A program made the translations under genes and the position numbers. Positions 3,764 to 63,910 of a stretch of 64,000 bases of DNA are shown one piece after another (the first letter of the stretch is position 1; each line of letters starts with the position of its first letter). A model generated the notes under the pieces. It was not told the origin of the DNA. It was given only the letters and a program-made list of their open reading frames with translations, and searched no databases. Source of the DNA: an uncultured Gammaproteobacteria bacterium (GTDB lineage: Bacteria > Patescibacteriota > Patescibacteriia > UBA11705); contig CAZQEI010000005.1 of assembly GCA_964592195.1 (NCBI GenBank), positions 5,689 to 69,688 on the forward strand. The letters are read 5' to 3'.

Positions 3764-3960
3764 ATTAAAAATTTAAATATTTCAAATTAAACATTTATAA
3801 TCTCATTTTCGCGCATTTGACCTTCTAATTTTTGTAAACGAATTTTCGCTTCTGCTTTATTCATATATTGCAATGCAAATTAATTTCGTGTTTGGAATTT
3901 GTAATTTTGGAATTTGTAATTTGGGATTTGCCCCGAAGGGGCCCCTTTGGGGGAATTTAT

Positions 3961-5121
3961 TTATACATTTATTATTTCTTTTATCACCGTTGTGCCATTA
4001 AAACCATAAACCGCACATTGAGTGTTAGAAATCGGTTTGATGCTGGTAATTTCCTTAATACCACTATTTCTAGAACAAACCTCACCTTTATCATTCATAA
4101 CTACATGATTCCCCTCTCTATTCATCACACAATAAATTAGACGCTCGCCAACTACTTGAGTTAAACCATATTCAACTAAACGACCAAAATTACCGGGCAG
4201 GATTTCTTTGCCATCTACCCAGAGATGTTCTTCTCCTGAGCCTTCAAATGAAACAGCCACCAGTTTATTATTCCAAAACAATATCTTTTTTATCATTTTT
4301 AATTTTAACGTCCAATCAACCATTTTACTATTTATTTCAACGCCATTTTGTGCATTACTTTTACGCTGTAAAATAACCGCCAAATCATTTTCATTACGAG
4401 CAAAACCTAATATTATTGAATCTCCGGGAGCGTTATAAATTAGTCCTCCCTCAGAGACCACAGATTGACATCCCGCCATGATTGCAACAACATATAATTT
4501 ACCATCAATAAGATTAATGCCTCCAAATTTACTTACCTTATATTTACTCACCCAATCAATCCGCTTTTCATCAACCCAGATATGCAGTTTGTCAGAATTG
4601 TCTCTCCCATAAATGATAAAATGTCCATTTGAGTTTGCAACATCCACTCGATCCACAACCTCGGGGACTGCGTATTCATGCCCATTTTTCATATAGACAC
4701 CCGGCTTTAAATTATTCCTAGACTCATCACAAACCGAAACTGCATAACCATCTGGAATGCTAATTAAATTGTAGAAATTTGCATAATCCTCAGTTAGCAC
4801 ATTACCTAGATCATCCATAAGAATATCATTCTCACCATTTCTTATATGATAAACAAAACCTTTTTCAAGAGGAACAACGTTAAATATTTCAATATTTTCA
4901 CCTTCAATAAAATCACGAACATTCACACTGACAGCTTCCAACGACTCAGGTTTTACCAACCCGGCATAGTTTTCCACTTCTTTCAACAGTCGCGCCACAT
5001 GATCAGGATCTTTAGGATTACCGGTTTTGGCTAGTTCGCGCAATCGTTCATTAACATCAACCAAACTCACTGATTGCTCGTGAGTAACATCGCCGGTTAA
5101 TTTTTGTTCAAATGGTGACAT
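3961..5121 (-). CDS. N-module family protein F1 (conserved N-terminal module MSPFEQKLTG.. plus predicted beta-propeller-like C-terminal region)
   Basis: The ORF track gives 3961-5226. The homologous start MSPFEQKLTGDVTHEQSVSLVDVNERLRELAKTGNPKDPDHVARLL is at ATG 5119-5121, and the upstream 35 codons are read through a GC hairpin repeat. Confidence 0.6.
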   Translation of the reverse strand: MSPFEQKLTGDVTHEQSVSLVDVNERLRELAKTGNPKDPDHVARLLKEVENYAGLVKPESLEAVSVNVRDFIEGENIEIFNVVPLEKGFVYHIRNGENDILMDDLGNVLTEDYANFYNLISIPDGYAVSVCDESRNNLKPGVYMKNGHEYAVPEVVDRVDVANSNGHFIIYGRDNSDKLHIWVDEKRIDWVSKYKVSKFGGINLIDGKLYVVAIMAGCQSVVSEGGLIYNAPGDSIILGFARNENDLAVILQRKSNAQNGVEINSKMVDWTLKLKMIKKILFWNNKLVAVSFEGSGEEHLWVDGKEILPGNFGRLVEYGLTQVVGERLIYCVMNREGNHVVMNDKGEVCSRNSGIKEITSIKPISNTQCAVYGFNGTTVIKEIINV

Positions 5122-5212
5122 TGTATTGTATATTATGAAATCTACTTCCTGCTTTTCCGCCTGAGGCGGATCCGCCTTTGGCGGAGGAATTTTGGATTTG
5201 AAATTTGGAATT

Positions 5213-6904
5213 TTAATTTTTATCATTTAACTCATTCTCATGAACAAACATAAAATTTTCGAGATCGAATAATCGTTTGTAAAGTTTATCATCTTGGCGA
5301 TAAGTCACCCAAGCGAATGACTTTGATGCTGGTGTGATGGAAACAAAGGCATCAGAGACTAAAATGCAAGGCGCTATCACTTGCTCACGCCCTTGTTCAT
5401 CAAACATGATCCAATCATCACCATCCTTCAACCTTTTTGTGACAAAAATTACCTTATCACCCACAGGAATCGATTTTATCCCATTTCCAGTGGAAACATC
5501 AAGAATTGTCTTTATAACACCTCTATCAGGACTAAAAATTGTAGTGTAGCGACTATCCGCCCCATGTTTGGATGAATAGTACAACTTATTTTGTGAATTA
5601 TGAATCACGGCACAATCTGACAACTCTTCATTAAAAAACTTTTTAGTTATCCTTTCCCCTTTTGCATTAAATACTTGCGTTCCAAAATTTTCATAATAAC
5701 CAATCACATACACCTCCTCGCCTTGAACAACCAATGAACTAGGTGTAGAGCAACCAGATTGCAAAAAATTCATATCCAAGTTACCATTAACCGCCAGGCA
5801 GGTACTAGCGGAGACTCTTAAAGAATGAGTAGAATAAACATGCTGACTATTTTCAACTATATTAACAACCCGACCATCAACATTATTTTTAATAACCTTA
5901 CCGCTTGAATTGAGTATGTATGCTTGAGAAATATTATTTACAGGCCAACTGCCTACCAAAAAGAATCCTTGGCCCTCATTATTCACTCTCACTGCGGGAT
6001 TTGAAATATAACCTTCCAGCGGTTCGCCGGTGGGTGTCGAGCCAAGGTACCCAGGCGTATTTTTCTTGCCCCAAATTTCACCTTTGTGATCACATATATA
6101 AAAATGTTGATCCTTGTCCTTCAATGCCATAAAAACTTTATCCCCGACTGGTTGCAAATGTCCAGTAATAATATATTCATCGGGCAAATCAAGAATACCA
6201 TCACGCTCAGAATACAGGCACCACTTATTATTTTTGATAACTAAGAACATATACTGACCTTGAAATCGAATAACTGTTTGCACGTCAATTCTAGAAAATT
6301 CTCCCTTGAATCTTTTACCATCCATCGTTACCAAGGAATAAAAGCCATCCATTTCTTTCTCTTGCCAAACTGCAAAATCTCCGGACATCAAATTTTGATA
6401 ATTCGCAGTTTCATTGACAGAAACATTAGGATTGATAACTTCGTTTTTTTCATTCACAAACCTATTCGGATTAAACCCTCCATCATTCTTGTCCCCTACA
6501 AAAATCACTTGACTTCCCACTTCACCTATTTCTGTGAAAGTGACAAAACCTTTACCTCCGGAAATATCTTCATTCGATTCATTAAAAACATGAACCATAC
6601 CATCCTTGTCATCGCAGGTAAAAAACAAGTGGCCATCAAAAACATAAATATTACTTTTATCCAAATTTGCAATTTGATTTATTTCATCAGTCTCAAATAA
6701 ATGAACAATCACATCATTTAAAATTTCCGACTTTTCAATCTGATTGGAATAGGCTGCCACTAAAGACAACAAAGTCTTCACTCTTCGCGGATCACGAGTA
6801 TCACCCTCCTTTACCACTTCACGCAGGCGTTCGTTTAAATCAACCAAGCTCACCGATTGATCGTGAGTAATATTGCCAGTTAGTTTTTGTTCAAATGGTG
6901 ACAT
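5213..6904 (-). CDS. N-module family protein F2 (563 aa, beta-propeller-like C-terminus)
   Basis: Starts MSPFEQKLTGNITHDQSVSLVDLNERLREVVKEGDTRDPRRV. The C-terminal region is rich in beta-strand repeats. Confidence 0.6.
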   Translation of the reverse strand: MSPFEQKLTGNITHDQSVSLVDLNERLREVVKEGDTRDPRRVKTLLSLVAAYSNQIEKSEILNDVIVHLFETDEINQIANLDKSNIYVFDGHLFFTCDDKDGMVHVFNESNEDISGGKGFVTFTEIGEVGSQVIFVGDKNDGGFNPNRFVNEKNEVINPNVSVNETANYQNLMSGDFAVWQEKEMDGFYSLVTMDGKRFKGEFSRIDVQTVIRFQGQYMFLVIKNNKWCLYSERDGILDLPDEYIITGHLQPVGDKVFMALKDKDQHFYICDHKGEIWGKKNTPGYLGSTPTGEPLEGYISNPAVRVNNEGQGFFLVGSWPVNNISQAYILNSSGKVIKNNVDGRVVNIVENSQHVYSTHSLRVSASTCLAVNGNLDMNFLQSGCSTPSSLVVQGEEVYVIGYYENFGTQVFNAKGERITKKFFNEELSDCAVIHNSQNKLYYSSKHGADSRYTTIFSPDRGVIKTILDVSTGNGIKSIPVGDKVIFVTKRLKDGDDWIMFDEQGREQVIAPCILVSDAFVSITPASKSFAWVTYRQDDKLYKRLFDLENFMFVHENELNDKN

Positions 6905-7021
6905 TCTGTTAGATTTAAGATTAGAGTTTATAGATTGTAGATATTATGGGTGATGGTAATTGGGATAAGGATGCCAGAAAATAATATTCGTGGATTCCCC
7001 GCGTGGCGGGGCAGGCGTGGT

Positions 7022-8260
7022 CTAATTCGAGAGATCTTCCTCCGACACTGGTTCCATAATATCAACTGTCACGCAAATCGCTTGACCATCTTTAACTCCA
7101 TAAACCTTGCATATATTATCTTTTATTGGTTTCACAAAACTAATCGCATCGAATATGCCAACTCGAATGCAAGCCTCACCTTCATGGTTAACCAATCGCA
7201 ACCCATCGGAAGCATAGTCAGCAATCACAAACCCATCACCGACCTTCGTTAGTTCTTTACCATTTTCAATAATAATAAGTGGTTCTGCTGAGTCTGATGC
7301 CATCACTGTGTTCCTGGGGAAATCATTGTCAGCAACATATAAAGCCTTCCCTTCCCAAATTATGGAATTCCCAACCATATTTAAAATACGATCATCCAAA
7401 AATTTTTGATTTTTTCCTCTAATTTGTTTTATTCCGTAATGTTTATTGAACTCATCACGGTATTTAACATATAAACCATCCTCACCATCAGTAAATATTT
7501 CATTAACATTAAGACAACTAAACAATTCTTCCACTTATACCCCATCAATAAGCAAAAAATGTGTCTTATCACGCGATCCGACACAGACAATTTGATTATG
7601 ATAAAAACAAAAACTTGTAAAATATGAATAATTACTGGCCCATTCCTGTTCCTGTCCGTCAATCATCAAGGATGCAACAACTGTTTCTTTATTTCGTTTA
7701 TAGCCATCATCAGTAAAGATTATTTCGTGGCCACCAACATTCTTAACTGAAACACCTGAAAAGTTTTTATACCTGAGATCTTCTCCATTTTTTCTAATAA
7801 TCACAATATCCTCATGAAAGTCATTATGAAATCTCGATGGATGACTGCCCCTTTTACCTGTGGCAACAAATGAATCTCCAACTGATACTAAGTTGTTCAC
7901 TTCCCGTAAATTTTCAGACAAAACCTTACCTTTATTATCGACAATGATAAAATCCGAAGCTCTCCTCCCGATGATCACCGCACCACCAGCAATCGGCACA
8001 ACCTTCATAATTTGGTAAATGCCTAAATTTTCAAAATTAAAAACATCAAAGAGAACCTTCTTGCCTAATTTAATCTCATCCAAATCATCTTCAAATTCTT
8101 TTGAATATTTCTCCACCAATTGCAATAAAGCAGCAACGTTCTTTGGATCACGCGGATTTTTCACTTTTGCAGCTTCGTGCAAGCGTTCGTTAATATCAAC
8201 CAAACTCACCGCTTGATCGTGAGTAATATTGCCAGTTAATTTTTGTTCAAATGGTGACAT
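7022..8260 (-). pseudogene. N-module family member F3, interrupted by an in-frame TAA (7535-7537)
   Basis: ORFs 7535-8260 (N-module MSPFEQKLTGNITHDQAVSLVDINERLHEAAKVKNPRDPKNV) and 7022-7534 are in the same frame, separated by a single TAA. Together they are colinear with the intact paralog at 8387-9616 (both C-termini end ...ICKV.G..D..QAICVT...SEEDL). Confidence 0.55.
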
Positions 8261-8386
8261 TCTGTTAAATTAGAGATTATAGATTTTATGTGATAATTAA
8301 ATCTTATTCGTGGATTCGTGGGAAATTCGTGGATTCCCCGCGTGACGGGGCAGGCGTGGGACATTTATGGATTTGCGGTCAATATA

Positions 8387-9616
8387 TTATAGATCTTCCG
8401 CTGAAACAGTTGTCATCGTATTTATAGTCACACAAATCGCTTGATTATTTTTATCAATTCCACAAACTTTGCAAATATTACCTTTAACAGGAAGAATGTC
8501 AGTAATTCTAACAAAATCAGATGGTTCTATACATGATACTCCTAAATAATTATAAACAGTTACACCATCGCCGGAAAGATCCCTACCAATCACGAGAAAA
8601 TCTTCATTAAAAGGAATAATGCCAAGCGATTCCTTGACTGTAAACAAGGGATTATTTTTATCTTTGGTCAAAGTAATATCGAGATAGCCTTGACCTGCAG
8701 TTGAGGATGTTTTCATGAATACCATCTGACCATAATTACCAGAGTATACAACTTGGTTGTTCACAATCCTAGTTAATTCAACCTCTTTGGAATCGTCATT
8801 TGTTTGAATTTCTTTAACCAATGTTACAGTTGTAATCCGCTTATCCGTGTAACAAACAAATAATTCATCCTTGGCATTTGAAATTAAATTAGTCACAGAG
8901 TCACAATCAGGTAACTCTTCCTCTTCCTTACCATCTAAAACAAGCCACCATTTACCATCACGATAACCAGCGCATGCGATGCCTTTGCAATAAGAACAAA
9001 ATGCTTTAACCTTTATATACTTTTTTGCCCACTCTTGATTTATTCCATTAATAATAACTTTAGCGGGTAAGTTCGTTTGATTTATTTTATGATAGGCGTA
9101 GACAATTTCACAATTATCAACAATCGCAATATTTGCATATCTATAACCGATTAACGATTCGTCTTCTCCCTGTGGTCGAACCACATTTATACTACCACCA
9201 CGATGAACAAGCGCGACAAAAGAATCTGTACCAATCCTATGAGGTCTGACATAAACATGATCAAAATTATCAGAATATTTTTTCCCATCAGTATCTAACA
9301 AAATTTTACCGGACTGATCATCACCATAAATCAAGATCTTCCTGCCAAAAAGTAAAACTGACTGGATATATTTTAATCCATATCTTTGAATAATATCCGA
9401 GTTGAAAAGTATTTTTTTCCCTAATTTTGTCCCATATAATTCATCCTCAAATTCCATGGAATATTGCTCCACCAATTGCAACAATGTGGCAACGTTTTTC
9501 GGGTCACGCGGGTTTTTACCTTTTGCGACTTCACGCAAGCGTTCGTTAATATCAACCAAACTCGCCGCTTGATCGTGAGTAACATCGCCAGTTAATTTTT
9601 GTTCAAAAAGAGACAT
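8387..9616 (-). CDS. N-module family protein F4 (beta-propeller-like C-terminus)
   Basis: The homologous start MSLFEQKLTGDVTHDQAASLVDINERLREVAKGKNPRDPKNV is at ATG 9614-9616. The ORF track start at 9640 adds 8 codons. Confidence 0.6.
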   Translation of the reverse strand: MSLFEQKLTGDVTHDQAASLVDINERLREVAKGKNPRDPKNVATLLQLVEQYSMEFEDELYGTKLGKKILFNSDIIQRYGLKYIQSVLLFGRKILIYGDDQSGKILLDTDGKKYSDNFDHVYVRPHRIGTDSFVALVHRGGSINVVRPQGEDESLIGYRYANIAIVDNCEIVYAYHKINQTNLPAKVIINGINQEWAKKYIKVKAFCSYCKGIACAGYRDGKWWLVLDGKEEEELPDCDSVTNLISNAKDELFVCYTDKRITTVTLVKEIQTNDDSKEVELTRIVNNQVVYSGNYGQMVFMKTSSTAGQGYLDITLTKDKNNPLFTVKESLGIIPFNEDFLVIGRDLSGDGVTVYNYLGVSCIEPSDFVRITDILPVKGNICKVCGIDKNNQAICVTINTMTTVSAEDL

Positions 9617-9775
9617 AAGACTAATTAAAGAATAATACAAGGCTACAGATGCTACCGATATTTTCTACCGATACTACTGATTTAAAAATTAGTTCCCTGT
9701 ATTGGAATTTTCCGCCGGTCATCGACTCCGAGGTAAATGTATGTTTCGTCGCTCAGACTCGAGGAGAGGCGGATC

Positions 9776-9795
9776 CCTGCCTACCGGCAGGCAGG
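9776..9795. repeat. REP-like palindrome, near-perfect copy (cctgcctaccggcaggcagg) embedded in ggcggatcc...ttggcggag hairpin context
   Basis: One mismatch relative to the 20-bp perfect palindrome seen at 14298, 24445, 29132 and 45045. Confidence 0.55.
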
Positions 9796-9828
9796 CGCCT
9801 TTGGCGGAGATTATTGGTGCTTGGTTAT

Positions 9829-11410: not shown

Positions 11411-13012
11411 TTACTTGCCTGCCTGAGCAGGCGGGTGATTTATTAACGATTGACCGACTACGGTAGCTGGTTGTTTAATCTCCATAAAGTCATAGATAGT
11501 CGGGGCAATATCTCCTAAACTACCATCGTGTAAATGCACTTTTTTAGTTTTCGAATGCATGATAACAAACGGCACGGGATTAGTGGTATGCTCAGTGAAC
11601 ACTTCACCGGTTTTTTCATCAATCATTTTCTCCGCATTACCATGATCAGCCGTCACAAACATCACCCCCTTCAACGAGGTAACGGCCTTCATTAATTTAC
11701 CCAAACAGATATCTACATGTTCAATCGCCTTGATGGTTGCCTTCAAATTACCAGTATGACCAACAATGTCTGGATTGGCAAAATTAACCACAATGAAATC
11801 AAATTTTTTAGCTTTAATCGCCTTTAAAATATAATCAGTAATAGTATACACTGACATTTCTGGTTTTAAGGCGAAGTTTCTCACTTTATCCGAAGGAATT
11901 AAAACTCGAGTTTCGTCAAACACTTCATGCGGGTAACCGCCATTGATGAAATACGTCACATGTGCAAACTTTTCCGATTCTGCTATATACAGTTGTTTGT
12001 AATTATTCATAACAAAAGGCAACGTCCCCAACAATTCAGCTCCGGGAAAAGCCGTAATCAATTCGCTTGATAAATCCGGGCCAAAATATGTAAAAGCACA
12101 AAACAAAACATTTCTCAAAGATTTAGAGCGCTTAAACGAACCAGGATTTTCTGCGTTAAACCTCTTTTGCACAAATGCTTTTGTCAATTGACGAGCCCGA
12201 TCAGAACGTAAATTGAAAAAAATCACGGCATCATCATTTTTAATTCGCGACTCGGAAAAATCAGAACGGCCACGATCAATAATCGACGGTTCGATAAACT
12301 CATCTGTCAACTCGGAATTGTATGCATGTTCAATGGCATCTTTGTAATAAGTAAATTTCAATCCCTTACCCCCGACCAAACAATCATAGGCTTTCTTAGT
12401 TCGATCCCAATTCTTGGCACGATCCATCGCATAAAATCGTCCCAGCAACGTTACCAGTTCCCAACCCTTATATCCATGATTAAGTTTCTCGAGTTTTGTC
12501 AACAACTCATGAATAATCCTATGGGAAGAATGTTGAGCTGAGTCACGACCGTCAGTAAATAAATGTAAAAAAACTTTTTCAATTTTCTGTTGCCGTGCCC
12601 ACTCCACCAAAGCGACCAAGTGACTTAACGAACTATGAGGGCTATCACCATCCGACACCATACCCATTAAATGTAATCGGGATTTATTGGCAATAATATG
12701 ATCATTAACATATTTAAAAGAAATATTTTGATAAAAAGAACCATCAGCGATCGCGCGATTAATAATGACATTATCCTGAAACACGACCCGACCAGCGCCG
12801 ATGTTCATGTGTCCAGCTTCAGAATTACCAGCTAAACCATCTGGCAAGCCAACGCAACTTTCGCTGGCGCACAATTTGGCATGCGGATATTTTTTCCATA
12901 ATGAATCGAAGTTTGGTTTCTTGGCCAGCTCAATAGCATTGCCCGGCCCTTTGGGTGCCAAACCAAAACCATCCATGACTAATAAAATTGTTGGTTGATA
13001 TTTTTTAATCAT
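11411..13012 (-). CDS. gpmI: 2,3-bisphosphoglycerate-independent phosphoglycerate mutase, paralog 1
   Basis: 533 aa. ILLVMDGFGLAPKGPGNAIELAKKPNFD and metal-binding regions typical of iPGM. Confidence 0.85.
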   Translation of the reverse strand: MIKKYQPTILLVMDGFGLAPKGPGNAIELAKKPNFDSLWKKYPHAKLCASESCVGLPDGLAGNSEAGHMNIGAGRVVFQDNVIINRAIADGSFYQNISFKYVNDHIIANKSRLHLMGMVSDGDSPHSSLSHLVALVEWARQQKIEKVFLHLFTDGRDSAQHSSHRIIHELLTKLEKLNHGYKGWELVTLLGRFYAMDRAKNWDRTKKAYDCLVGGKGLKFTYYKDAIEHAYNSELTDEFIEPSIIDRGRSDFSESRIKNDDAVIFFNLRSDRARQLTKAFVQKRFNAENPGSFKRSKSLRNVLFCAFTYFGPDLSSELITAFPGAELLGTLPFVMNNYKQLYIAESEKFAHVTYFINGGYPHEVFDETRVLIPSDKVRNFALKPEMSVYTITDYILKAIKAKKFDFIVVNFANPDIVGHTGNLKATIKAIEHVDICLGKLMKAVTSLKGVMFVTADHGNAEKMIDEKTGEVFTEHTTNPVPFVIMHSKTKKVHLHDGSLGDIAPTIYDFMEIKQPATVVGQSLINHPPAQAGK

Positions 13013-14274
13013 AAAGATTTTAATTCCCGTTCGATCTCCATCAAGCGGTTATATTTTTCTACCCGCTCTGAACGTGATAAGGAACCAGTTTTAATAAAAT
13101 CCGCATTCACTGCTACAGCCAAATCAGCAATAAAAGTATCCGCAGTTTCTCCTGATCGATGAGAGACACTGACTTTGTAATTATGTTCTTTGGCTAAATA
13201 AATCGCATCAATAGTCTCAGTTAACGAACCAATTTGGTTTAACTTAATCAAGATGGCATTGGCCACATTATTTTCAATCCCATGTTTTAAACGTTCCACA
13301 TTGGTCACAAATAAATCATCGCCCACTAAAGCGACATGATCGCCCAAGTAACCGGTTAGCTTCGCCCAATTAGCCCAATCATCTTCAGCTAATGCATCTT
13401 CAAGAGAAATAATTGGATATTTACGTAACCAACTTTCCATAGTTTTGATCACAGCATCAGGCGTGATAAACTTTTTCATTTTCTTATCGTTCAAGGCGTA
13501 TTTACCATTAGCAAAATATTCACTCAATGCTAAATCAACTCCGATAAAAGCATCCTTCCCTGGTTTATAACCGGCTTTTTTAATGGCGGCAACAATAAAA
13601 TCTAAACCCTCTTCATTGGACTTCAAATTTGGCGCAAAACCACCTTCATCGCCCACTAAAGTTTGATAACCAGCGTCTTTTAATAAAGATTTCAAAGCTT
13701 GAAAAACTTCCGATCCGATTCTCACCATATCCGCCATGGATTTCGCTTGTGGCACGACCATCATTTCTTGTACTGTAACTGAATTATCCGCATGTTTACC
13801 GCCGTTCAAGATATTCATGGTTGGTTGCGGACTAAAATATTTTTTCTCCGGTAAATTGTAAATGCTTCGAATATATCGATACAGTGGTAAGCCATGAGCA
13901 ATACTGCCGGCGCGCGCAACTGCCAAAGACACGGCTAATATCGCATTAGCTCCCAATTTACTCTTATTCTCCGTACCATCATACGCAATCATGGCATCGT
14001 CAATCAATTGCTGTTCTTCAATTTTAACTCCGACTAATATTTTACCAATCTTATCATTTACATTTTTAACTGCTTTCAGAACACCCTTCCCACCATAACG
14101 TTTTTTATCCCCATCTCTCAATTCCAAAGCTTCATGACTACCAGTGGACGCACCACTCGGCACTGCCGCCTTGGCCACCACTCCATTAGTTAAATAAACT
14201 GACGCCTCGACTGTTGGCAAACCACGAGAGTCAAGAATTTCACGAGCAATAATTTTTTTGATTTTCATATACAT
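13009..14274 (-). CDS. eno: enolase
   Basis: IIAREILDSRGLPTVEA N-terminal signature and full-length enolase architecture. Confidence 0.95.
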   Translation of the reverse strand: MYMKIKKIIAREILDSRGLPTVEASVYLTNGVVAKAAVPSGASTGSHEALELRDGDKKRYGGKGVLKAVKNVNDKIGKILVGVKIEEQQLIDDAMIAYDGTENKSKLGANAILAVSLAVARAGSIAHGLPLYRYIRSIYNLPEKKYFSPQPTMNILNGGKHADNSVTVQEMMVVPQAKSMADMVRIGSEVFQALKSLLKDAGYQTLVGDEGGFAPNLKSNEEGLDFIVAAIKKAGYKPGKDAFIGVDLALSEYFANGKYALNDKKMKKFITPDAVIKTMESWLRKYPIISLEDALAEDDWANWAKLTGYLGDHVALVGDDLFVTNVERLKHGIENNVANAILIKLNQIGSLTETIDAIYLAKEHNYKVSVSHRSGETADTFIADLAVAVNADFIKTGSLSRSERVEKYNRLMEIERELKSL

Positions 14275-14297
14275 TTCGAATGTACGAATTAATTACG

Positions 14298-14317
14298 CCT
14301 GCCTGCCGGCAGGCAGG
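14298..14317. repeat. REP-like 20-bp perfect palindrome CCTGCCTGCCGGCAGGCAGG
   Basis: Exact copy. It is intergenic between eno and the upstream small gene. Confidence 0.7.
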
Positions 14318-14392
14318 AATGTTTGCGAATTATTAATTTGGTTAACTTGCAAACAATCCTCGTTTTCGCACTATAATATTATTTTTTATTTA

Positions 14393-20896: not shown

Positions 20897-21036
20897 CGAG
20901 ATTGCCACGCCCCGATGCGGGGCTCGCAAATTAGGTTACTCTTTTGCGAGGAGTGAAACGACGAAGCAATCTCTATGGAAATTAAACCTCTTTTGCGAGG
21001 ATCCCCGATTAAATCGGGGAGACGAAGCAATCTCTA
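20897..21036. repeat. Composite intergenic repeat family R1, copy b (two inverted core modules)
   Basis: gagattgccacgccccgatgcggggctcgcaaa ... tttgcgaggatccccgattaaatcggggagacgaagcaatctct. Confidence 0.6.
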
Positions 21037-21040
21037 AAAG

Positions 21041-21340
21041 TTACAAATCATCATAAAGATCTCGAAATTCCGGATTCATACTTTTATTTAGTGCTATTTT
21101 TTTCGCCCTTGAACCAGCCTTAATTTGCCTTTCTCTATTTAAAGCTTCATAAGCACTATCACAAATCTCGAAGTAAACTAATTTATTTATATTATATCTT
21201 GCCGTAAACGAATTCGGATCAACCTTATTCTTGTGTTGCCAAACTCTTCCGACTAAATCATTTGAAAAACCTGTATATAAAACTGTATTTATATTATTTG
21301 TCATTATATACACATAGAATTGTTCAGGCCTATCATACAT
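21041..21340 (-). CDS. GIY-YIG nuclease family protein
   Basis: FYVYIMTNNINTVLYTGFSNDLVGRVWQHKNK fits the GIY-x10-YIG signature. The gene sits inside the hydrogenase operon. Confidence 0.8.
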   Translation of the reverse strand: MYDRPEQFYVYIMTNNINTVLYTGFSNDLVGRVWQHKNKVDPNSFTARYNINKLVYFEICDSAYEALNRERQIKAGSRAKKIALNKSMNPEFRDLYDDL

Positions 21341-21349
21341 ACTTGCCGA

Positions 21350-23186: not shown

Positions 23187-23308
23187 TACGAATGACGTAT
23201 TTGCTACGCCTGCCCCGCTGTGCGGGGAAACTACATATACATATAGTGAATAACTAAAAGTTCTCAATATCCTAATTCGTAGATACGTAGCTGATTCGTT
23301 ATTGGTAG
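23187..23308. repeat. Composite GTAG-rich intergenic repeat family R2, copy i
   Basis: ctacgaatgacgtatttgctacgc + GC hairpin cctgccccgctgtgcgggg + cgtagatacgtagctgattcgttattggtag. The same architecture recurs at 33100, 44970 (inverted) and 52425. Confidence 0.6.
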
Positions 23309-24399: not shown

Positions 24400-24444
24400 T
24401 GGAGCGGATAAGGGGAATTGAACCCCTCTCTCAACCTTGGGAAG
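24400..24444 (-). repeat. tRNA-like remnant, copy 2: T-arm (GGGG-TTCAATT-CCCC), acceptor 3' strand and CCA, plus anticodon-loop-like CTTCCCAAGG
   Basis: It shares the 3' 19 nt with copy 1 and the loop CTTCCCAAG with the downstream tRNA-Gly. The D-arm and 5' acceptor region is replaced by the CCTGCCTGCCGGCAGGCAGG palindrome (24445-24464). Confidence 0.45.
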
Positions 24445-24464
24445 CCTGCCTGCCGGCAGGCAGG
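24445..24464. repeat. REP-like 20-bp perfect palindrome CCTGCCTGCCGGCAGGCAGG
   Basis: Exact copy. Confidence 0.7.
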
Positions 24465-24512
24465 GTCGCATAAAATAAATTACATTACATTATTCTAATC
24501 GTACTAAATATC

Positions 24513-29131: not shown

Positions 29132-29151
29132 CCTGCCTGCCGGCAGGCAGG
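29132..29151. repeat. REP-like 20-bp perfect palindrome CCTGCCTGCCGGCAGGCAGG followed by cgtag and a second hairpin-rich segment (ggtgtcatccgacacc, ggcatgtcgaatgacatgcc)
   Basis: Exact copy between atpG and atpD. The flanking hairpin block also occurs at 640-690. Confidence 0.7.
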
Positions 29152-29226
29152 CGTAGTATCAGTAGCAGATCCGTAGATCCGTGGTGTCATCCGACACCAC
29201 TGGCATGTCGAATGACATGCCGTAGT

Positions 29227-33099: not shown

Positions 33100-33195
33100 C
33101 TACGAATGACATATTTGCTACGCTTGTCCGCCTCAGGCGGAAAACAACGGATATAATATCGATACGTAGATTCGTAGCTGATTCGTTATTGGTAG
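33100..33195. repeat. Composite GTAG-rich intergenic repeat family R2, copy ii
   Basis: tctacgaatgacatatttgctacgc + GC hairpin ccgcctcaggcgg + cgtagattcgtagctgattcgttattggtag. Confidence 0.6.
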
Positions 33196-44969: not shown

Positions 44970-45090
44970 TACCAATAACGAATCAGCTACGAATCTACGT
45001 ATCGAAATATTTCTACATTTCATGAGCTTACATATTCGTAGTTTCCTGCCTGCCGGCAGGCAGGCGTAGCAAATTTGCCATACGTAGAAA
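44970..45090. repeat. Composite GTAG-rich intergenic repeat family R2, copy iii (inverted orientation) with the 20-bp palindrome in the central hairpin slot
   Basis: ctaccaataacgaatcagctacgaatctacgta ... cctgcctgccggcaggcagg (45045-45064) ... gcgtagcaaatttgccatacgtagaaac. Confidence 0.6.
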
Positions 45091-45750: not shown

Positions 45751-45916
45751 ATGGATGTCTACCCTTCGAGGCTCCTGTTTCACAGGAGGCACCTCAGGGT
45801 GACATTTAAAGTATATTTTAATGTTGTAATTATATCAAATGTATAAAATATAAGCAATTTTCAGCTAATTTTCGTGTTTTTTGATCAATGATCAATGGTC
45901 AATGTTACATGACCAC

Positions 45917-45945
45917 TTGACAAACTTTAAACTATGTGCTATAAT
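45917..45945 (+). promoter_or_regulatory. Consensus sigma70-type promoter TTGACA-17-TATAAT
   Basis: ttgaca (45917-45922), a 17-nt spacer, tataat (45940-45945). It lies directly upstream of the GC-rich non-coding island on the plus strand. Confidence 0.6.
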
Positions 45946-45951
45946 GCTTAG

Positions 45952-47508
45952 TTACATGATCGTTTACAATCAATAGCTCTCGTAGAGTCTTTTGACTCCG
46001 AGATGTCTATAACCAACTCCAAGCCCCCACCGAACTATGCACATTGGAGGTGCCGCAGGAATGCGATCGGGGGCAGATGCAGGGTGGACATGCCAAAGTA
46101 TAGGCTCGTAACAAAAACCGCGAGGAGAGAAGCGGTTTGAGCTGAAGCTGTGGACAACCCCACCCTAATTCGTCAAAACTCTCGCTCGAGCCACAAGGTT
46201 CGCGAGATAATTGACTGCTCCTCGTCAGATGAGCCGCAACCAACGGGACTCATGGCGAGGCACGCGCACGTATCTTGGTATGGAGTAAGCACCGCGGTTG
46301 ACCCTGCTGGTAACAGGGTGGTATATAACCGGCGGAAGCGCTACATAGTACAAGAGGTGCGGTGAAATCGAGCCCGATTCGTCGGGATTTCGATACGAGC
46401 TCCTGGAGCCCCCACCCAACAACACACCTGGAGGTGGCGCGTAATGCGTTTGGGGGCAGACAGCGGGTGAGACAGACTTGTCTCGACCAATTGACTACTC
46501 AAAGAAGTGAAAGATCCTCGACGAGAAAGTCTCACCCAAAGTCGTCGATTTCTCTACCGCAAGGTGGAGATCGAAGATACGCTGACTCGGACGATCGCGG
46601 TCCTGTGGCCCTCCCGCCCCTCTGCTGGTGGCAGAGATGGACAATCGTTCGAGCGTACCCCGGCCCTAAGCTCGGCTAACCCTGCGCCTCGCGGTGCACG
46701 GTCAAGCAGCTTCCGTGGCAGTCCTCACGAGGCTCGTTCGGTCGCTCGCTGGAGTCCTCTTCAGGATAAACCAGCCCGCCGCGACTGCGCCCCAGACTTC
46801 CGTCTGTCGGGGCTTACGCCTGTGGGGTTCGCACGCCACGCGAGGTGTCCGGGGATGCGAAGTTGATCGTTCTGCGAAAGTGGAACGTCGACATAGATCA
46901 CCACGCAACTCTCCCAGCAAATCCAGGGAGACTACCCGCCTTGAGTCTTTTGGGCCACGTGTGGACGAGTTAAATCGTCCTGTACAAGCCTCAGTTCGAA
47001 ACTGGCTCTAAGGCGGGCACGAAATTGACCACTCTTCGGAGTGTGTTGATACAGATCATCCGAGGGCTCGCAGCTCACACCCACTCGATGTGGGAGTCAG
47101 CTCTGAGCTCGTCAACGTGAGCACCAACGTCACTGGCGGTTCTTATCCGTCCAGAATCTGGTCAGCCTGAAGTACAAGGGCTGGTTGGAGGAGGGGTTCA
47201 CGGTGATGTCCATGGTGTCCGAACAATCGGACTGACCATATCAGAACGCCACCCATCGTCGCATGCGCAACGATTCATCGAACTCGGACATCCGAGACAC
47301 AGCATGACGCGACGATCGGGCGTTGATCCCCAGTTCACATCTGGTTCAGGCCGCAAACAAAAGCGACTGACCGATAAGCTGGGGACACGAATTCAGCCTT
47401 TGCTGATGGACAAGATGACTTCGGTCGTCGCGTTCTCGCAAAGTGTTGATAGATCTCAAGCTCCGACGTTGAACACCTCACGGTGAACAACGTCGGAGCA
47501 CTTTTTTT
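45952..47508 (+). ncRNA. Candidate large (about 1.55 kb) GC-rich structured non-coding RNA of unknown class, or a non-coding foreign insertion
   Basis: There is an abrupt shift to GC-rich sequence with no frame free of stops. The short ORFs are Arg/Pro/Ser-rich in all six frames. It is bounded by a consensus promoter and an intrinsic terminator, and carries an internal ~65-nt repeat (46024-46090 and 46409-46476). Confidence 0.45.
47461..47508 (+). terminator. Rho-independent terminator
   Basis: An 11-bp stem ctccgacgttg/caacgtcggag with an inner sub-hairpin cacc-tcac-ggtg, followed by cacTTTTTTTaTTT. Confidence 0.7.
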
Positions 47509-47619
47509 ATTTGGTAAGTTGGCCTGCCTGCGTAAGGCAGGTAATTGGTAAAAAAGTAAATTGGTACATGGAATATTAAAAAAACGAGCAAAATGCTCGA
47601 ATTTTTATTATTATTTTAT

Positions 47620-52573: not shown

Positions 52574-53473
52574 TTACTTTTGACACACAGAACAATAGCT
52601 CGTCCCCCTTTGCGCCACCTTCATCTTTTGAATGGTGGCTTTTTTGCATTTCAAACATTTCAAACCAGCGCGGCCATAAACCTTGAGGAAACGAACAAAG
52701 TTTCCTTTTTCTCCGCGCGCATCCACGTAAGTATTGAATGACGTGCCTCGTTCTTCGATCGCTTTTTTCAAAATTTTAACTATAGCAATATATAACTTTT
52801 TTCTTTCTGCTAATTTTAAACTTTTCACCTTACGATCAGGCATCACTCCAGCCGCAAAGCAACTTTCATCTGCGTAAATATTGCCGATGCCGGCAATTAA
52901 TTCTTGCATCAATAAAACTTTTTTAATTTCCAAATTCGGTTTGCGTTTAAGAATCGAGTTAAAAACTTCCAAAGTAAATTCCGGCACAATCGGCTCCATT
53001 CCAAAACGCAATTTTTCTTTCGTCACTGTTGCTTCATCAGCTAACCGCAAATAACCAAACTTCCGCATATCATTGTAATACAATTTTCCCGCTGAACCGA
53101 AATCTAACAATACTTTATTAAATCGGTCTGGTGTTTGTCGCGATTGACCAATAGGGTGGCCGCCGGTGATAATTTTTCCCCTCGGCGGCACAAACACAAA
53201 TTGACCAGTCATTTTCATATGGGCCAAAACTTTCATTGATTTATCTCCGCCAAAGGCGGATCCGCCTCCGGCGGAGAAATCGAATATTAGCATTTTACCA
53301 ACACGTTCAACGCGATGAAATTTCGCGCCTTGCAAAAACTTAATAAATTTCTCTTTAGTCGGAGAAATTCTTTTTTTAAAATCATCTTTAATTTCAACCT
53401 GCAAAACCTTTTTGCCTTTCAAATACTTTTCCAAATCTCGGCGCACGGTTTCGACTTCGGGTAGTTCGGGCAT
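52574..53473 (-). CDS. mutM: formamidopyrimidine-DNA glycosylase
   Basis: N-terminal MPELPEVETVRR (catalytic Pro2/Glu3) and a C-terminal zinc finger CLKC...CSVCQ. It contains an in-frame GC-palindrome insertion at 53245-53285. Confidence 0.9.
   Translation of the reverse strand: MPELPEVETVRRDLEKYLKGKKVLQVEIKDDFKKRISPTKEKFIKFLQGAKFHRVERVGKMLIFDFSAGGGSAFGGDKSMKVLAHMKMTGQFVFVPPRGKIITGGHPIGQSRQTPDRFNKVLLDFGSAGKLYYNDMRKFGYLRLADEATVTKEKLRFGMEPIVPEFTLEVFNSILKRKPNLEIKKVLLMQELIAGIGNIYADESCFAAGVMPDRKVKSLKLAERKKLYIAIVKILKKAIEERGTSFNTYVDARGEKGNFVRFLKVYGRAGLKCLKCKKATIQKMKVAQRGTSYCSVCQK
53245..53285. repeat. GC-rich palindromic repeat ctccgccaaaggcggatccgcctccggcggag embedded in-frame in mutM
   Basis: It encodes SAGGGSAFGGD. 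The same ggcggatccgcc...ttggcggag element is intergenic at 5158-5190 and 9765-9810. Confidence 0.55.
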
Positions 53474-53594
53474 ACATTATTTAAATTCCAAATATTAAAA
53501 TTCCAAATTCCAAAGTTGGTGTTTTTTATCCGTAATATCAGCCCCAAAGGGGCCCCTTCGGGGTAAAATCGGTAATCAATCGGTATATCCGTAA

Positions 53595-62154: not shown

Positions 62155-62844
62155 TCAATCAAAGAATTGCAACTGAGAAAAAACGGTGGATAAATCACCA
62201 ACACGACAATCACCAGACAACTCAAATATTTTTTGTTTTTTAACATCAAAGTAAACAATCTTATTCACAGGGCAGCTAACATCACGTCCATTTTCATAAT
62301 TAAAAACAGGATATTCGTTTATCGTTTGAGATGCAAATAATTTACTTATCGCTTCTTCACGTGTCGGTGAAATCGTATTCCAACCGTAATCAAACACCGT
62401 ACACTCATTTAAGTTGCACGGCTCGCCGTTAAACCTCCAACTTTCCAAATACGTGCTTTGGTTACCGGTAAACATTCGCAATTGCGCGGGGGGAGAATTT
62501 TGACCAGTGCGCAATTCAATCGTGCCATCGGCTAACTCTACGACTTGATAATTTTGTGCAGTATTAACTTTCAAACCAAAACCAGCAGGATTATTAACAT
62601 AGGAGAATTCACCGTCAACCACCACAGGTTGCTCAACTTGTTTTTGCTTTACCACCTGTTGCCAGTTTTGCCATTGACTGGTAATTTCCCCTACTTGAGA
62701 TCTTGTTTGCCAAAACATATAACCGAGCAAAATAAAACCACCTACTAGAAAAATTATTATTACCCCCAAAATCAAGGTTAATCGTTGTTTACGTTTATAA
62801 TCATTAATTTGCTTCATACTAAACTGTTCTAACTTTTTTAACAT
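62155..62844 (-). CDS. hypothetical membrane-anchored protein (229 aa)
   Basis: An N-terminal TM helix and Gln/Trp-rich linker. No recognisable family. Confidence 0.3.
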   Translation of the reverse strand: MLKKLEQFSMKQINDYKRKQRLTLILGVIIIFLVGGFILLGYMFWQTRSQVGEITSQWQNWQQVVKQKQVEQPVVVDGEFSYVNNPAGFGLKVNTAQNYQVVELADGTIELRTGQNSPPAQLRMFTGNQSTYLESWRFNGEPCNLNECTVFDYGWNTISPTREEAISKLFASQTINEYPVFNYENGRDVSCPVNKIVYFDVKKQKIFELSGDCRVGDLSTVFSQLQFFD

Positions 62845-63910
62845 CCTCTTTAGCGTGACTCAAGCATCTTTCACCTAGTTCGTTCAATCGAACTATTAAA
62901 GATTTACGTTCACTTTTATATCTTTGATATTCAAAATTGGTTTCCGGTTCATCGCCCTGCGCAAAAGTTTTCTTTATTTCACTGTATTTATAATTATGAG
63001 CAGAAAAATCTTTTTTTATTTGTTCCAGGCGATCAATGTCCTCTGAATAATCAAAATATTCCATTAATGTTTTCAAATAACTAAACAGTAATTCAAACCA
63101 ACGGGTTCTCCATTTATTATTATACGCCGGATCTTCAACATCATAATCCATAGTATTTTCCACATTTAACGGGGAGGTAGAACCAGACATTGCCACCAAT
63201 TTCTTTAATCTTTCCAAAACCACGGGATCTACCGGTTTCTTTTCCATATGCAAATGTGGATCATCGTTGAATGATAAATATTTTTCAACCTGTTTAATCA
63301 GGGCCTGAATTTCGGTTAATTGCGTTTCCGTGGTTTCAGGAATTGGGCCACGTTGCCGATGTTTAATCGGCGACTGGGCAGGATCCAATTGTTGTTCGTC
63401 TTCGAAGGACATATTTTTATGTTTTAATTGCCAATTCAACGGATTGTTTTCAATATAGGCGCGAATTTTATTTAATGATTGTTCATTGCGAATAATGTGA
63501 TCGTAGAATGATTTTTGCCACACGAATTCATTATCACCATTTTCCCGAAAATATTTGGTAACGCCAATTTTAAAACCACGAACAATCGATGAAATGGATT
63601 TTGACCATTTTGTTTGCCATGGTAGGGAACAAACATTTTTGTTCCCTACGTTATGGTCAAAATATAATATTCCATGAATATGATCTGGCATTATAATATG
63701 ATAATCCAATCGACATTCGGGAAAATGTTTTGGTATATCCAACCAACAATCACGCACAAAAATACCATAATCATTTAAAACCATTTCACCATTAACAATA
63801 TTACCAAACCAAAACAATCTATTTTTCGTACAAATCGTTATATAATACCATCCCGCCTGCGAATAATCCCACCCACGCAATCGATTTAATTTTCGATTTT
63901 TCCCCTCCAT
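62819..63910 (-). CDS. REP-associated tyrosine transposase (RAYT)/IS200-like HuH transposase domain protein with long C-terminal extension
   Basis: The N-terminal about 140 aa carries the IS200/Y1 fold signatures GWDYSQAGWYYITICTKNR and the HuH motif MPDHIHGIL. It is followed by an unrelated charged extension of about 220 aa. Confidence 0.6.
   Translation of the reverse strand: MEGKNRKLNRLRGWDYSQAGWYYITICTKNRLFWFGNIVNGEMVLNDYGIFVRDCWLDIPKHFPECRLDYHIIMPDHIHGILYFDHNVGNKNVCSLPWQTKWSKSISSIVRGFKIGVTKYFRENGDNEFVWQKSFYDHIIRNEQSLNKIRAYIENNPLNWQLKHKNMSFEDEQQLDPAQSPIKHRQRGPIPETTETQLTEIQALIKQVEKYLSFNDDPHLHMEKKPVDPVVLERLKKLVAMSGSTSPLNVENTMDYDVEDPAYNNKWRTRWFELLFSYLKTLMEYFDYSEDIDRLEQIKKDFSAHNYKYSEIKKTFAQGDEPETNFEYQRYKSERKSLIVRLNELGERCLSHAKEDVKKVRTV

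Follow-up and report, generated by a model that had tools for sequence, protein, structure and literature searches.

A 30-nt twin-hairpin repeat in-frame in the fpg gene of an uncultured Patescibacteria bacterium: a probable selfish insertion of a family found across phyla

Palindromic repeats that lie in-frame within functional genes, and also between genes, are known from Rickettsia (Rickettsia palindromic elements, RPEs; Ogata et al. 2000, via PMC3733652), and in-frame REPs have been found inside genes as well, many of them dimers and many in genes for replication and repair (Di Nocera et al. 2013, PMC3733652). Additionally, the double-hairpin elements (DHEs) of fungal mitochondria have been reported from intergenic regions and rRNA genes (Paquin, Laforest & Lang 2000; as excerpted in PMC10085805). 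Seamless insertion with no target-site duplication, and with end hairpins as likely recognition features, is found in PATEs, which derive from IS200/IS605. Known PATEs are considerably longer than 30 nt and insert strand-specifically on the 3' side of a fixed tetra- or pentanucleotide, RPEs measure roughly 100-150 bp, and for REPs an HUH/Y1-type transposase acting in trans has been proposed.

The element described here is only 30 nt long and resembles RPEs and intragenic REPs, yet it differs in its smaller size, in the lack of a tag and in its distribution over several phyla. Both RPEs and this element are non-coding palindromes that occur in-frame in functional ORFs and between genes and are tolerated as an extra surface peptide, and neither has an associated transposase; RPEs, however, are Rickettsia-specific families confined to one genus, whereas the 30-nt element is unrelated in sequence and is carried by Patescibacteria, Omnitrophota, PVC and other phyla. 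Its similarity to REPs and REPINs, which are GC-rich imperfect palindromes of 20-40 nt and often inverted dimers, lies in its two inverted 15-nt hairpin units, in its in-frame intragenic copies and in G:T pairing in stems and loops, which suggests transcription of both. The differences are that the element and its conserved flanks lack GTAG, CTAC, CGTC and GACG, that the association with a RAYT (REPtron) is missing, that classical REPs are high-copy and overwhelmingly extragenic whereas this element appears to be low-copy and is about half intragenic among the sampled copies, and that REPs form families of their own in each species, in contrast to one near-invariant sequence across phyla. As described in the excerpt in PMC10085805, DHEs are likewise short GC-rich double hairpins, scattered in an AT-rich genome and suspected to be mobile, with identical or nearly identical copies across species and occasionally inside genes (rRNA genes); they are, however, organellar and of another sequence, and in-frame protein insertions are not among the features given in that excerpt. 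Finally, seamless insertion and hairpin structure are shared with PATEs, but the target preference is loose and symmetric (TTY/RAA-like, the slash marking the junction), with no strand bias among intergenic copies, no cognate TnpA was identified, and the target-site duplication of DDE-type MITEs is absent from the filled and empty GH57 sites described below.

The copy that we analyzed lies in a 64-kb stretch of DNA (hereafter the window), inside a 299-aa minus-strand ORF (52574-53473) identified with Pfam as fpg/mutM, the gene of formamidopyrimidine-DNA glycosylase, which is open and apparently intact. The GC-rich palindromic repeat that the initial annotation had placed in-frame within mutM is indeed present. 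It occupies 53246-53275 on the minus strand (codons 67-76, SAGGGSAFGG) and appears as ctccgccaaaggcggatccgcctccggcggag at 53245-53276 of the plus strand. The coding strand reads TCC GCC GGA GGC GGA TCC GCC TTT GGC GGA, that is, TCCGCC-GGA-GGCGGA followed by TCCGCC-TTT-GGCGGA, two adjacent hairpins, and the host bases TC...GA prolong the pairing to a 34-nt palindrome (53244-53277) that fits the flank consensus tTnT...AnAa. The G+C content of the insert is 22/30 in a genome of about 37% G+C. In the window, GGCGGATCCGCC occurs twice (0.02 expected), the 30-mer consensus of the family with at most three mismatches also twice (0.00 expected), and CCGCC-N3-5-GGCGG five times (0.02 expected). No mismatch separates the fpg copy from the family consensus, and its flanks TTCT...AGAT conform as well; as RNA, it is predicted to form a single hairpin, with a stem of about 15 bp and the loop GAUC, at -31.7 kcal/mol (z = -6.3).

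A second full copy, TCCGCC TGA GGCGGA TCCGCC TTT GGCGGA, was found at 5156-5185, and its sole difference from the fpg coding strand is TGA instead of GGA; in fpg, TGA would be an in-frame stop. This copy, located between paralogous genes, is probably intergenic: it comes about 27 nt past the stop codon of one gene, and about 35 nt separate it from the likely ATG (5121) of the next, which lies downstream. The longest ORF call, 3961-5226, would however run across it. Of the relatives of the fpg insert that had been noted at about 5160 and about 9765, the former is close (29/30 nt), and the latter proved to be a degenerate, interrupted copy.

The host protein has the hallmarks of Fpg/MutM, namely the N-terminal Pro-Glu catalytic dyad, the H2TH domain and the C-terminal C4 zinc finger. 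Pfam matches were obtained for Fapy_DNA_glyco (7e-28), H2TH (7e-22) and zf-FPG, and the invariant alignment columns P2, E3, K60, the HxKMTG motif and the four zinc-finger cysteines (C273, C276, C294 and C297) are all kept. Sequence matches in the PDB reach down to 1e-40, and the predicted model was aligned by Foldseek with 1PM5 and 1R2Y (TM 0.91), the values for L. lactis and B. stearothermophilus Fpg being TM 0.91 and rmsd 2.2-2.3 Å. Where the window protein reads FDF-SAGGGSAFGG-DKSM, a 4-residue turn is aligned in all 25 homologues (46-70% identity), none of which carries the same loop encoded by unrelated codons, and the insertion is thus lineage-specific. The closest homologue (P0002, 289 aa, on the syntenic contig L001) lacks exactly the 10 residues, as does every close homologue down to 68% identity, in agreement with the codon-level comparison, and L. 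lactis Fpg, like the solved Fpg structures, aligns with a 10-aa gap. The net gain is exactly 10 residues, rather than the roughly 11 estimated at first. Empty or filled fpg sites in other strains were searched for in a metagenome scan with a variable gap, which returned no matches, and the contig index has no entry for the exact protein.

As had been anticipated, the Gly-rich insert maps between two beta strands. In the AlphaFold model, which otherwise has a normal Fpg fold, strands 61-67 and 80-85 enclose a loop (68-79) of low pLDDT (<50-60) at the turn of a beta-hairpin. The first strand is preceded by K60 and the second is followed by the HMKMTG intercalation loop; both strands therefore run back to DNA-contacting residues, which makes the turn the point of the hairpin farthest from DNA. 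With its length of exactly 10 codons, the element leaves the frame intact, and the protein survives since the register reads Ser-Ala-x-Gly-Gly twice, since GGA stands where the sister copy has TGA, and since the insertion falls at the hairpin turn.

The family consensus is T-CCGCC-NNA-GGCGG-AT-CCGCC-TNN-GGCGG-A (30 nt), flanked by T-rich sequence on the 5' side and A-rich sequence on the 3' side, and corresponds to a head-to-head pair of hairpin units of 15 nt each, TCCGCC-NNA-GGCGGA. Two sets were collected, the first with at least 118 loci on contigs of one genome per species and the second with at least 120 loci on JGI metagenome contigs. The sampled copies, at least 240 with exact stems, come from Patescibacteria/CPR, Omnitrophota, PVC phyla and others, and their hosts span Planctomycetota/Verrucomicrobiota and Ignavibacteriota too. 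Among the matches listed, each sampled genome holds 1-4 exact copies (two full copies in the 64-kb window), and the sequence is nearly invariant across phyla in both sets, a near-identity suggestive of horizontal spread in uncultured bacteria of groundwater and sediment. As to phage carriage, only two matches were found among 2.9 million viral contigs. No description of this family was found in the literature, where the DNA sequence, the peptide and combined keywords led only to cloning primers, synthetic linkers or other families of elements; Rfam at gathering thresholds recognized only a tRNA in the window.

A T is found at position -3 in 87-91% of the copies and an A at +3 in 76-78%, which defines the loose, symmetric target preference. 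The loops are exactly complementary in 24 of 122 copies (16 expected), and at the middle loop positions G:T and A:C combinations outnumber Watson-Crick pairs by 71 to 29 (Fisher p = 8e-5), one unit having an NGA loop and the other an NAA loop. This enrichment of mismatches implies that the internally asymmetric element is not a simple inverted duplication, and an origin as a perfect palindrome or by fold-back was rejected. An intrinsic terminator was dismissed also, because on both strands a T-run precedes and an A-run follows the hairpin, so that a 3' U-tract is never present.

The seamlessness of insertion can be observed in the GH57 genes of two Omnitrophota MAGs that are 89.3% identical at the DNA level, one of them filled (CTTC-[30 nt]-AAAAAC) and the other empty (CTTC/AAAAAC), with no target duplication. 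Orthologous copies are kept between diverged genomes in the UvrB and ArsA pairs. In the UvrB pair, whose DNA is 84% identical, the element is identical at 30/30 positions while its flanks have diverged (0.841^30, about 0.006), which, at the level of sequence comparison, hints at a constraint on the DNA or RNA itself.

Among the matches listed, copies inside long ORFs account for 54/123 in set 1 and 73/121 in set 2 (127/244, about 52%, together). Phase 0 was found in 46/54 (p = 5e-15) and 59/73 (p = 1e-16) of the intragenic copies listed, 83% of which are in the frame S-A-x-G-G-S-A-x-G-G. Hosts confirmed with NCBIfam are RpoB, RpoC, DnaE, DnaG, UvrB, Mfd, GyrA and PolX, and furthermore PheT, CysS, AspS (twice), TsaD, MurA, MurC, FolD, NifS and others; clean 10-aa gaps are observed for TsaD against E. 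coli 4YDU and for FolD against 3P2O. Such colonization of a gene without disruption of its frame had been proposed to be rare; RPEs and intragenic REPs are earlier examples of in-frame palindromic repeats (PMC3733652), and here about half of the sampled copies are intragenic. Moreover, the A..C orientation prevails on the sense strand of the intragenic copies listed, at 31:8 (p = 3e-4) in set 1 and 33:8 in set 2. This orientation corresponds to Lys/Glu plus Ser and to a mismatched RNA hairpin; the fpg copy is in the minority orientation (G..U, fully paired). The intergenic copies listed are divided 12:12 relative to the local gene direction, which speaks against strand-specific insertion. The frame bias implies that the element is translated, and the frame and orientation biases together led us to dismiss a mini-intron removed before translation.

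We consider it likely that 53246-53275 is a copy of a selfish, seamlessly inserted repeat, tolerated in-frame as a loop and belonging to a spreading family that is sieved by selection. Under this reading, a miniature, non-coding, self-complementary repeat entered the fpg frame seamlessly, as a member of a family that spreads inside genomes and from one genome to another in Patescibacteria, Omnitrophota, PVC and further uncultured lineages and that inserts at T-rich/A-rich junctions (TTY/RAA-like) without duplicating the target. Selection then sieves the copies, so that those which survive inside genes are overwhelmingly in the SAxGGSAxGG frame and the A..C orientation, and the fpg insert is translated as a disordered surface loop. 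Rather than an adaptation of Fpg, it most probably represents "selfish" DNA, either neutral or slightly deleterious. The insertion itself, the membership of the family, the seamlessness, the biases of frame and orientation and the position of the loop are observed here; neutrality and the mode of movement are inferred. Our best guess for the mover is a candidate hairpin-recognizing single-stranded-DNA transposase of HUH/Y1 type, which would act in trans; the two observations behind this guess are the absence of a target duplication and the hairpin architecture.

Several other explanations were weighed against this reading. A chance likeness, in which an ordinary Gly-rich Fpg loop mimics the intergenic repeat, could draw on the variability of this loop position, since the distant homologues P0036, P0113 and P0116 carry unrelated insertions nearby; the likeness is effectively refuted by the 29/30-nt match to 5156-5185, which holds at synonymous positions too, the G+C content of the genome being 37%, by the expectation of 0.00 chance matches, and by the absence of the loop from every homologue. 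An artefact of assembly or sequencing, such as a palindrome-induced chimera, is a very improbable origin for the insert. The source is a metagenome-assembled contig, the exact Fpg protein occurs on one contig only, and every family member so far comes from MAGs or metagenomes; however, the frame is kept, with one of three frames preferred in two independent collections (p about 1e-15), one orientation is favoured inside genes only, copies occur in assemblies from many studies, made with various assemblers and platforms, long-read MFD MAGs among them, and orthologous copies are retained in the diverged UvrB and ArsA pairs. A domesticated insert, in which an mRNA hairpin or DNA palindrome regulates translation, mRNA decay or transcription, or in which the Gly-rich loop gives Fpg a new property, seems to us quite unlikely. 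The stability of the fpg RNA hairpin (-31.7 kcal/mol, z = -6.3), the 30/30 identity in UvrB between genomes only 84% identical around the element, and the near-invariance across phyla would be in line with it, but a function specific to one gene is disfavoured by the presence of the same 30 nt in dozens of unrelated genes, at positions that bear no relation to each other, and close Fpg relatives lack the insert. In addition, the loop is predicted by the model to be disordered and to sit at the turn that is most distant from the residues in contact with DNA, and intragenic copies prefer the orientation with the weaker RNA hairpin (31:8 and 33:8), with the fpg copy in the minority.

We also regard as unlikely that the element is a strict REP/REPIN moved by the RAYT-like Y1 transposase gene at 62819-63910, 9.3 kb away. 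Against NCBIfam, this ORF scores 50.9 bits for NF047646, "REP-associated tyrosine transposase" (E = 1.5e-13), which is below the NCBIfam cutoff of 80; there is a weak Pfam Y1_Tnp match, and homologues are named RayT by JGI. The doublet of inverted hairpin units is REPIN-like, and insertion without target duplication is compatible with HUH/Y1 chemistry. However, no element copies flank the ORF, four homologous loci are flanked by GGAACAAAAATTTTTGTTCC or atcgccatcttyggcgat and never by TCCGCC hairpins, and no RAYT-like homologue was found within about 4 kb of 119 sampled element loci, for which reasons this gene was not adopted as the mover; both of the other palindromes are absent from the 64-kb window. 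The lack of a GTAG or CGTC tag and the 12:12 orientation of intergenic copies also speak against a strict REP.

With the selfish reading of the fpg copy, a DNA-repair enzyme of a streamlined CPR genome would carry selfish DNA in its polypeptide, apparently without harm. We are evenly divided on the broader claim that this is an undescribed, phylum-crossing seamless family with near-invariant DNA and a hairpin-specific mover, whose flexible ten-codon linker sits in essential genes; if true, that linker is what allows persistence in gene-dense, streamlined genomes and lodging in rpoB, rpoC, dnaE and tRNA synthetase genes. The signature is simple, a 30-nt sequence and the peptide SAxGGSAxGG, by which surface loops that tolerate insertions can be recognized in dozens of essential proteins, and the element can confound alignments, phylogenies and structure prediction of CPR and Omnitrophota proteins. 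The family may serve as a natural experiment on the survival of mobile DNA where almost no intergenic space exists, and it points to a seamless insertion/excision activity on very short hairpin DNA; the mover, if found, could be of practical use as a minimal-substrate DNA insertion system.

Partial copies are also present in the window. The degenerate copy at 9766-9810, GGCGGATCC...GCCTTTGGCGGAG, is split by a nested, unrelated 20-nt palindrome, CCTGCCTACCGGCAGGCAGG (9776-9795); its right-hand 22 nt are intact and its left part has decayed, and removal of the 20 nt restores a match of 26/32 to the element. A single intergenic hairpin unit, TCCGCC TCA GGCGGA, was found at 33127-33141, preceded by gctacgcttg, which on the opposite strand is a tail containing GTAG. 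Other hairpins in the window carry a CAGGCGTRG tail.

The open reading frame that contains the repeat (window 52574-53473, minus strand, 299 codons) encodes a formamidopyrimidine-DNA glycosylase, with Pfam matches to Fapy_DNA_glyco (7e-28), H2TH (7e-22) and zf-FPG, and with matches to Fpg/MutM sequences of the PDB (best 1e-40). The plus strand at 53245-53276 reads ctccgccaaaggcggatccgcctccggcggag, and the 30-mer on the coding strand, TCC GCC GGA GGC GGA TCC GCC TTT GGC GGA, encodes SAGGGSAFGG as residues 67-76, in frame within mutM as the initial annotation had stated. It is built of two tandem 15-nt hairpin units, TCCGCC-NNN-GGCGGA, forms as a whole a near-perfect palindrome centred on GGATCC, and has a G+C content of 73%, compared to about 37% in the genome. 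The sequence GGCGGATCCGCC occurs twice in the window (0.02 expected), as does the 30-mer consensus when as many as 3 mismatches are allowed (0.00 expected), and a chance origin of the resemblance is excluded. A full second copy, TCCGCC TGA GGCGGA TCCGCC TTT GGCGGA, is located at 5156-5185 and shares 29 of its 30 bases with the coding strand of fpg, which bears out the proposed kinship to a repeat near 5160; the sole mismatch, TGA for GGA in the first loop, would be a stop codon in the fpg register.

A search of 5.8 billion proteins recovered the window protein itself at 299 aa, together with closest relatives of 68% to about 45% identity, mostly 284-290 aa long and assigned, where named, to Falkowbacteria, Magasanikbacteria or Patescibacteria. 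All 25 aligned homologues have a 4-residue turn (GTTH, GKDK, GLNK etc.) between the conserved strands ...GK(M/L)LIFDF and K(V/L)LAH(L/M)KMTGQ, where the window Fpg has the four homologue residues plus SAGGGSAFGG. The alignment of Lactococcus lactis Fpg (1TDZ, 1PM5) with the window protein likewise has a 10-residue gap, and on the syntenic contig of the closest relative, which has the same neighbours (DUF212, BacA and NTP-transferase), the repeat is absent throughout 14 kb. Judged from these alignments, the fpg segment is an insertion. The suggestion that it is lineage-specific agrees with the lack of the extra residues in 25 of 25 homologues, and only its size needs correction, from about 11 residues to 10; the observation and its interpretation were otherwise correct.

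The AlphaFold2 model computed on the homologue alignment (mean pLDDT 88.2) predicts beta strands at 61-67 and 80-85 and, between them, a coil with pLDDT below 50 at 70-72 and a mean of 58 over 71-80, in line with the Gly-rich loop that had been anticipated there. Superposition on structures of Fpg/MutM bound to DNA gave a TM of 0.91 (target-normalised) and an rmsd of 2.2-2.3 Å, and all catalytic and zinc-finger invariant residues are retained. K60 directly precedes the first strand and the HMKMTG motif, which in characterised Fpg enzymes bears the helix-intercalating Met, directly follows the second. Because these two elements adjoin the other ends of the strands, the insert-bearing turn would be the part of the hairpin most remote from the DNA, as read from sequence position and not from distances.

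The copy proposed near 9765 is indeed a relative of the element but not an intact one: its right-hand 22 nt are kept, its left end is decayed, and it is split at 9776-9795 by the unrelated 20-nt palindrome CCTGCCTACCGGCAGGCAGG, whose removal gives a 26/32 match. This nesting is evidence that small palindromes move in this genome, and by it the second palindrome family of the window, (G)CCTGCCTGCCGGCAGGCAGG(C), behaves as an insertion. Members of the latter were observed at 9776-9795, 11417-11432, 14297-14318, 24444-24465, 29132-29152 and 45045-45065, and one supplies the C-terminal tail ..PPAQAGK of the ORF at 11411-13048. A single hairpin unit of the element is present at 33127-33141. Additionally, differing GC hairpins (CCCCGC..GCGGGG, CCTGCC..GGCAGG and TCCGCC..GGCGGA) share an adjacent tail, CA(G/A)GCGT(A/G)G(C), at 6997-7020, 8336-8359, 23204-23227, 29132-29156, 45045-45069 and 33117-33141; exact matches to the tail number 5 as compared to 0.21 expected, and since the tail contains GTAG, these hairpins are tagged in a REP-like manner, albeit with the tag 3' of the hairpin after a 5-nt spacer. 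Twin hairpins of identical architecture but with CCCC/GGGG stems, GCCCC-GAA-GGGGCCCC-TTT-GGGG, are found at 3930-3953 and 53541-53563, one of them 68 nt upstream of the fpg start, and hybrid doublets such as CCCTCC-GGA-GGAGGG + TCCGCC-TTT-GGCGGA occur in contigs L004, L006 and L054, so that the double-hairpin class is broader than the TCCGCC type. Short tandem arrays of about 7-8-nt units (tttggaat, aaagtct, gaagatt, aaatctt) often surround intergenic twin hairpins on one or both sides (window 5186-5225 and 53478-53525; contigs L035, L037, L061, L062, L063, L069 and L107).

Using the pattern CCGCC-N3-GGCGGATCCGCC-N3-GGCGG, at least 118 stretches were found in one genome per species of 185,579 species. 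The matches listed are from MAGs only; about half belong to Patescibacteria/CPR (including Kaiser-, Sacchari-, Doudna-, Lipton-, Falkow-, Moran-, Magasanik-, Uhr- and Komeilibacteria), many others to Omnitrophota, and some are labelled Kiritimatiellae, Verrucomicrobia, Lentisphaerae, Planctomycetes, Ignavibacteria, Margulis-, Firestone- or Auribacterota, Chloroflexota and others. Viral contigs gave 2 matches only. The family core is t-T-n-T-CCGCC-NNA-GGCGG-AT-CCGCC-TNN-GGCGG-A-n-A-a, in which, among the matches listed, loop base 3 is invariably A (T on the mirror side) and only two dinucleotides vary. An independent scan of JGI metagenome contigs yielded at least 121 non-redundant copies and reproduced all results of the first set.

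Copies were considered intragenic if the ORF ran without a stop for at least 40 codons to either side. Among the matches listed, 54 of 123 copies of the first set lie within ORFs, in the registers SAxGGSAxGG (46/54), PPxADPPxAE (5/54) and RRRRIRLRR (3/54; binomial p = 5e-15 for the frame bias), and in the JGI set 73 of 121 do so, 59 of the 73 in phase 0 (p = 1e-16). Twenty hosts were confirmed by NCBIfam as bona fide core genes, namely RpoB, RpoC, DnaE, DnaG, UvrB, Mfd, GyrA, PolX, PheT, CysS, AspS (at two different sites), TsaD, MurA, MurC, FolD, NifS/IscS, an ArsA/Get3-like ATPase, a WecA/MraY-family transferase and a BshA-like glycosyltransferase; TsaD and FolD show clean 10-residue gaps against solved structures exactly at the element. 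A second, decayed peptide copy (FSARGGSAFGGDK, SAIGGSASSGK, SAVSGSASGGD, SAGGGPASGG) was seen in the hosts L017 (PheT), L034 (Mfd), L058 (CtpA-like) and L094, which indicates older insertions that by now decay like any other coding sequence; an NlpC/P60-like segment is also part of the L017 PheT ORF.

Among the matches listed, the middle loop bases are G:T or A:C in 71 copies and Watson-Crick in 29 (Fisher p = 8e-5; 81 and 16 in the JGI set), and this internal asymmetry gives most copies an orientation. Intragenic copies favour, on the sense strand, the A..C orientation, whose peptide has Lys/Glu...Ser and whose RNA hairpin contains a mismatch, by 31:8 (p = 3e-4; 33:8 in the JGI set), whereas intergenic copies are divided 12:12 relative to the local gene direction, all among the matches listed. 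Being confined to ORFs, the bias arises from selection on translated or transcribed copies, not from strand-specific insertion, and shows that ribosomes read the element, which is not removed beforehand. The fpg copy has the minority orientation, encoding Gly...Phe, and its mRNA can fold into one hairpin of about 15 bp without interruption (-31.7 kcal/mol, z = -6.3). Taken alone, the fpg locus is an ordinary and probably neutral member of an unusual class.

For three host proteins, exact-sequence cluster look-up identified close relatives. In GH57 glycosidase genes of two Omnitrophota MAGs (89.3% DNA identity), the filled site ...GCATTC[TCCGCCAAAGGCGGATCCGCCTCCGGCGGA]AAAAACAAGG... compares to the empty site ...ACCTTC|AAAAACAAGG..., so that the inserted DNA is the 30-mer and nothing more, its boundaries are unambiguous, and the target site is not duplicated. 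In two Doudnabacteria the ArsA-like genes are 99.4% identical and share the 30-mer, but only one has a 36-nt GC palindrome, CCCGCCCGCCTTGCTTCGCAAGGCGAAGCGGGCGGG (encoding PARLASQGEAGG), placed in frame and seamlessly between CAAAAA and TATGAC (L056, about 6154-6189, minus strand, compared with L127); here a member of another mini-palindrome family was gained or lost very recently. The UvrB genes of two Liptonbacteria (L020:3560-5416 and L128:1001-2866; 84.1% identical) carry the element at the same site, identical at 30 of 30 positions including the loops while the flanks diverge (chance about 0.006 at the background rate), which suggests constraint or homogenisation acting on its DNA or RNA. 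In fpg, the codon directly before the element, TTC (Phe66; F or L in homologues), belongs to the host, and the conserved T-rich/A-rich flanks therefore reflect a target preference (TTY|RAA-like), not inserted DNA.

With regard to the mobiliser, the window encodes a RAYT-like Y1/HUH transposase homologue (62819-63910, minus strand; NCBIfam NF047646, E = 1.5e-13, below the curated cutoff; Pfam Y1_Tnp, E = 1e-3). Its homologues, some of which are named RayT, number in the hundreds and are about 200 aa long; they lack its C-terminal extension of about 190 aa. A link to the element is disfavoured by three results: neither copies of it nor palindromes flank the gene, four homologous RAYT loci are flanked by unrelated palindromes not found in the window, and no RAYT homologue is near the element at 119 element loci. 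REPs of the GGAACAAAAATTTTTGTTCC type flank the homologues in L123-L125, and a 50-nt repeat that contains a hairpin flanks the one in L122 as direct copies; L122 also has copies related to the (G)CCTGCCTGCCGGCAGGCAGG(C) family. Movement by HUH/Y1 single-strand transposition is our leading guess, with low confidence, because hairpin ends and an unduplicated target are as expected of HUH/Y1. Small GIY-YIG-type ORFs adjoin GC hairpins in the window (21041-21349, minus strand, assigned by eye from sequence only; hairpins at 20909 and 21003) and the ArsA-like gene in L127 (440-712).

The family behaves like the in-frame palindromic repeats (RPEs) of Rickettsia, described in PMC3733652, like intragenic GTAG- or CGTC-tagged REPs, which are often dimers and often in replication/repair genes (PMC3733652), and like the GC-rich double-hairpin elements of fungal mitochondria, for which PMC10085805 describes cross-species sequence identity. 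It differs from them in being 30 nt long, untagged, seamlessly inserted and without RAYT association, in being about 50% intragenic among the matches listed with a strong single-frame signature, and in keeping one near-invariant sequence across many phyla. No description was found in the literature searched, whose coverage was incomplete, and the class seems to be a widespread and hitherto undescribed variant of the RPE/REP phenomenon that is worth systematic study.

Two further features of the window were observed. At 3961-9640 (minus strand), four or five paralogous genes without Pfam match form an array with GC hairpins between them, their products starting with MSPFEQKLTG. At 45915-47510 (plus strand), a GC-rich stretch of about 1.5 kb (0.5-0.57, genome 0.37) without a convincing ORF or an Rfam match at gathering thresholds or E<=0.1 has the look of an unannotated gene for a large structured RNA; it follows a sigma70-like ttgaca-17-tataat, has internal repeats at about 383-400-nt spacing, and ends in a strong hairpin and T-run (47460-47510).
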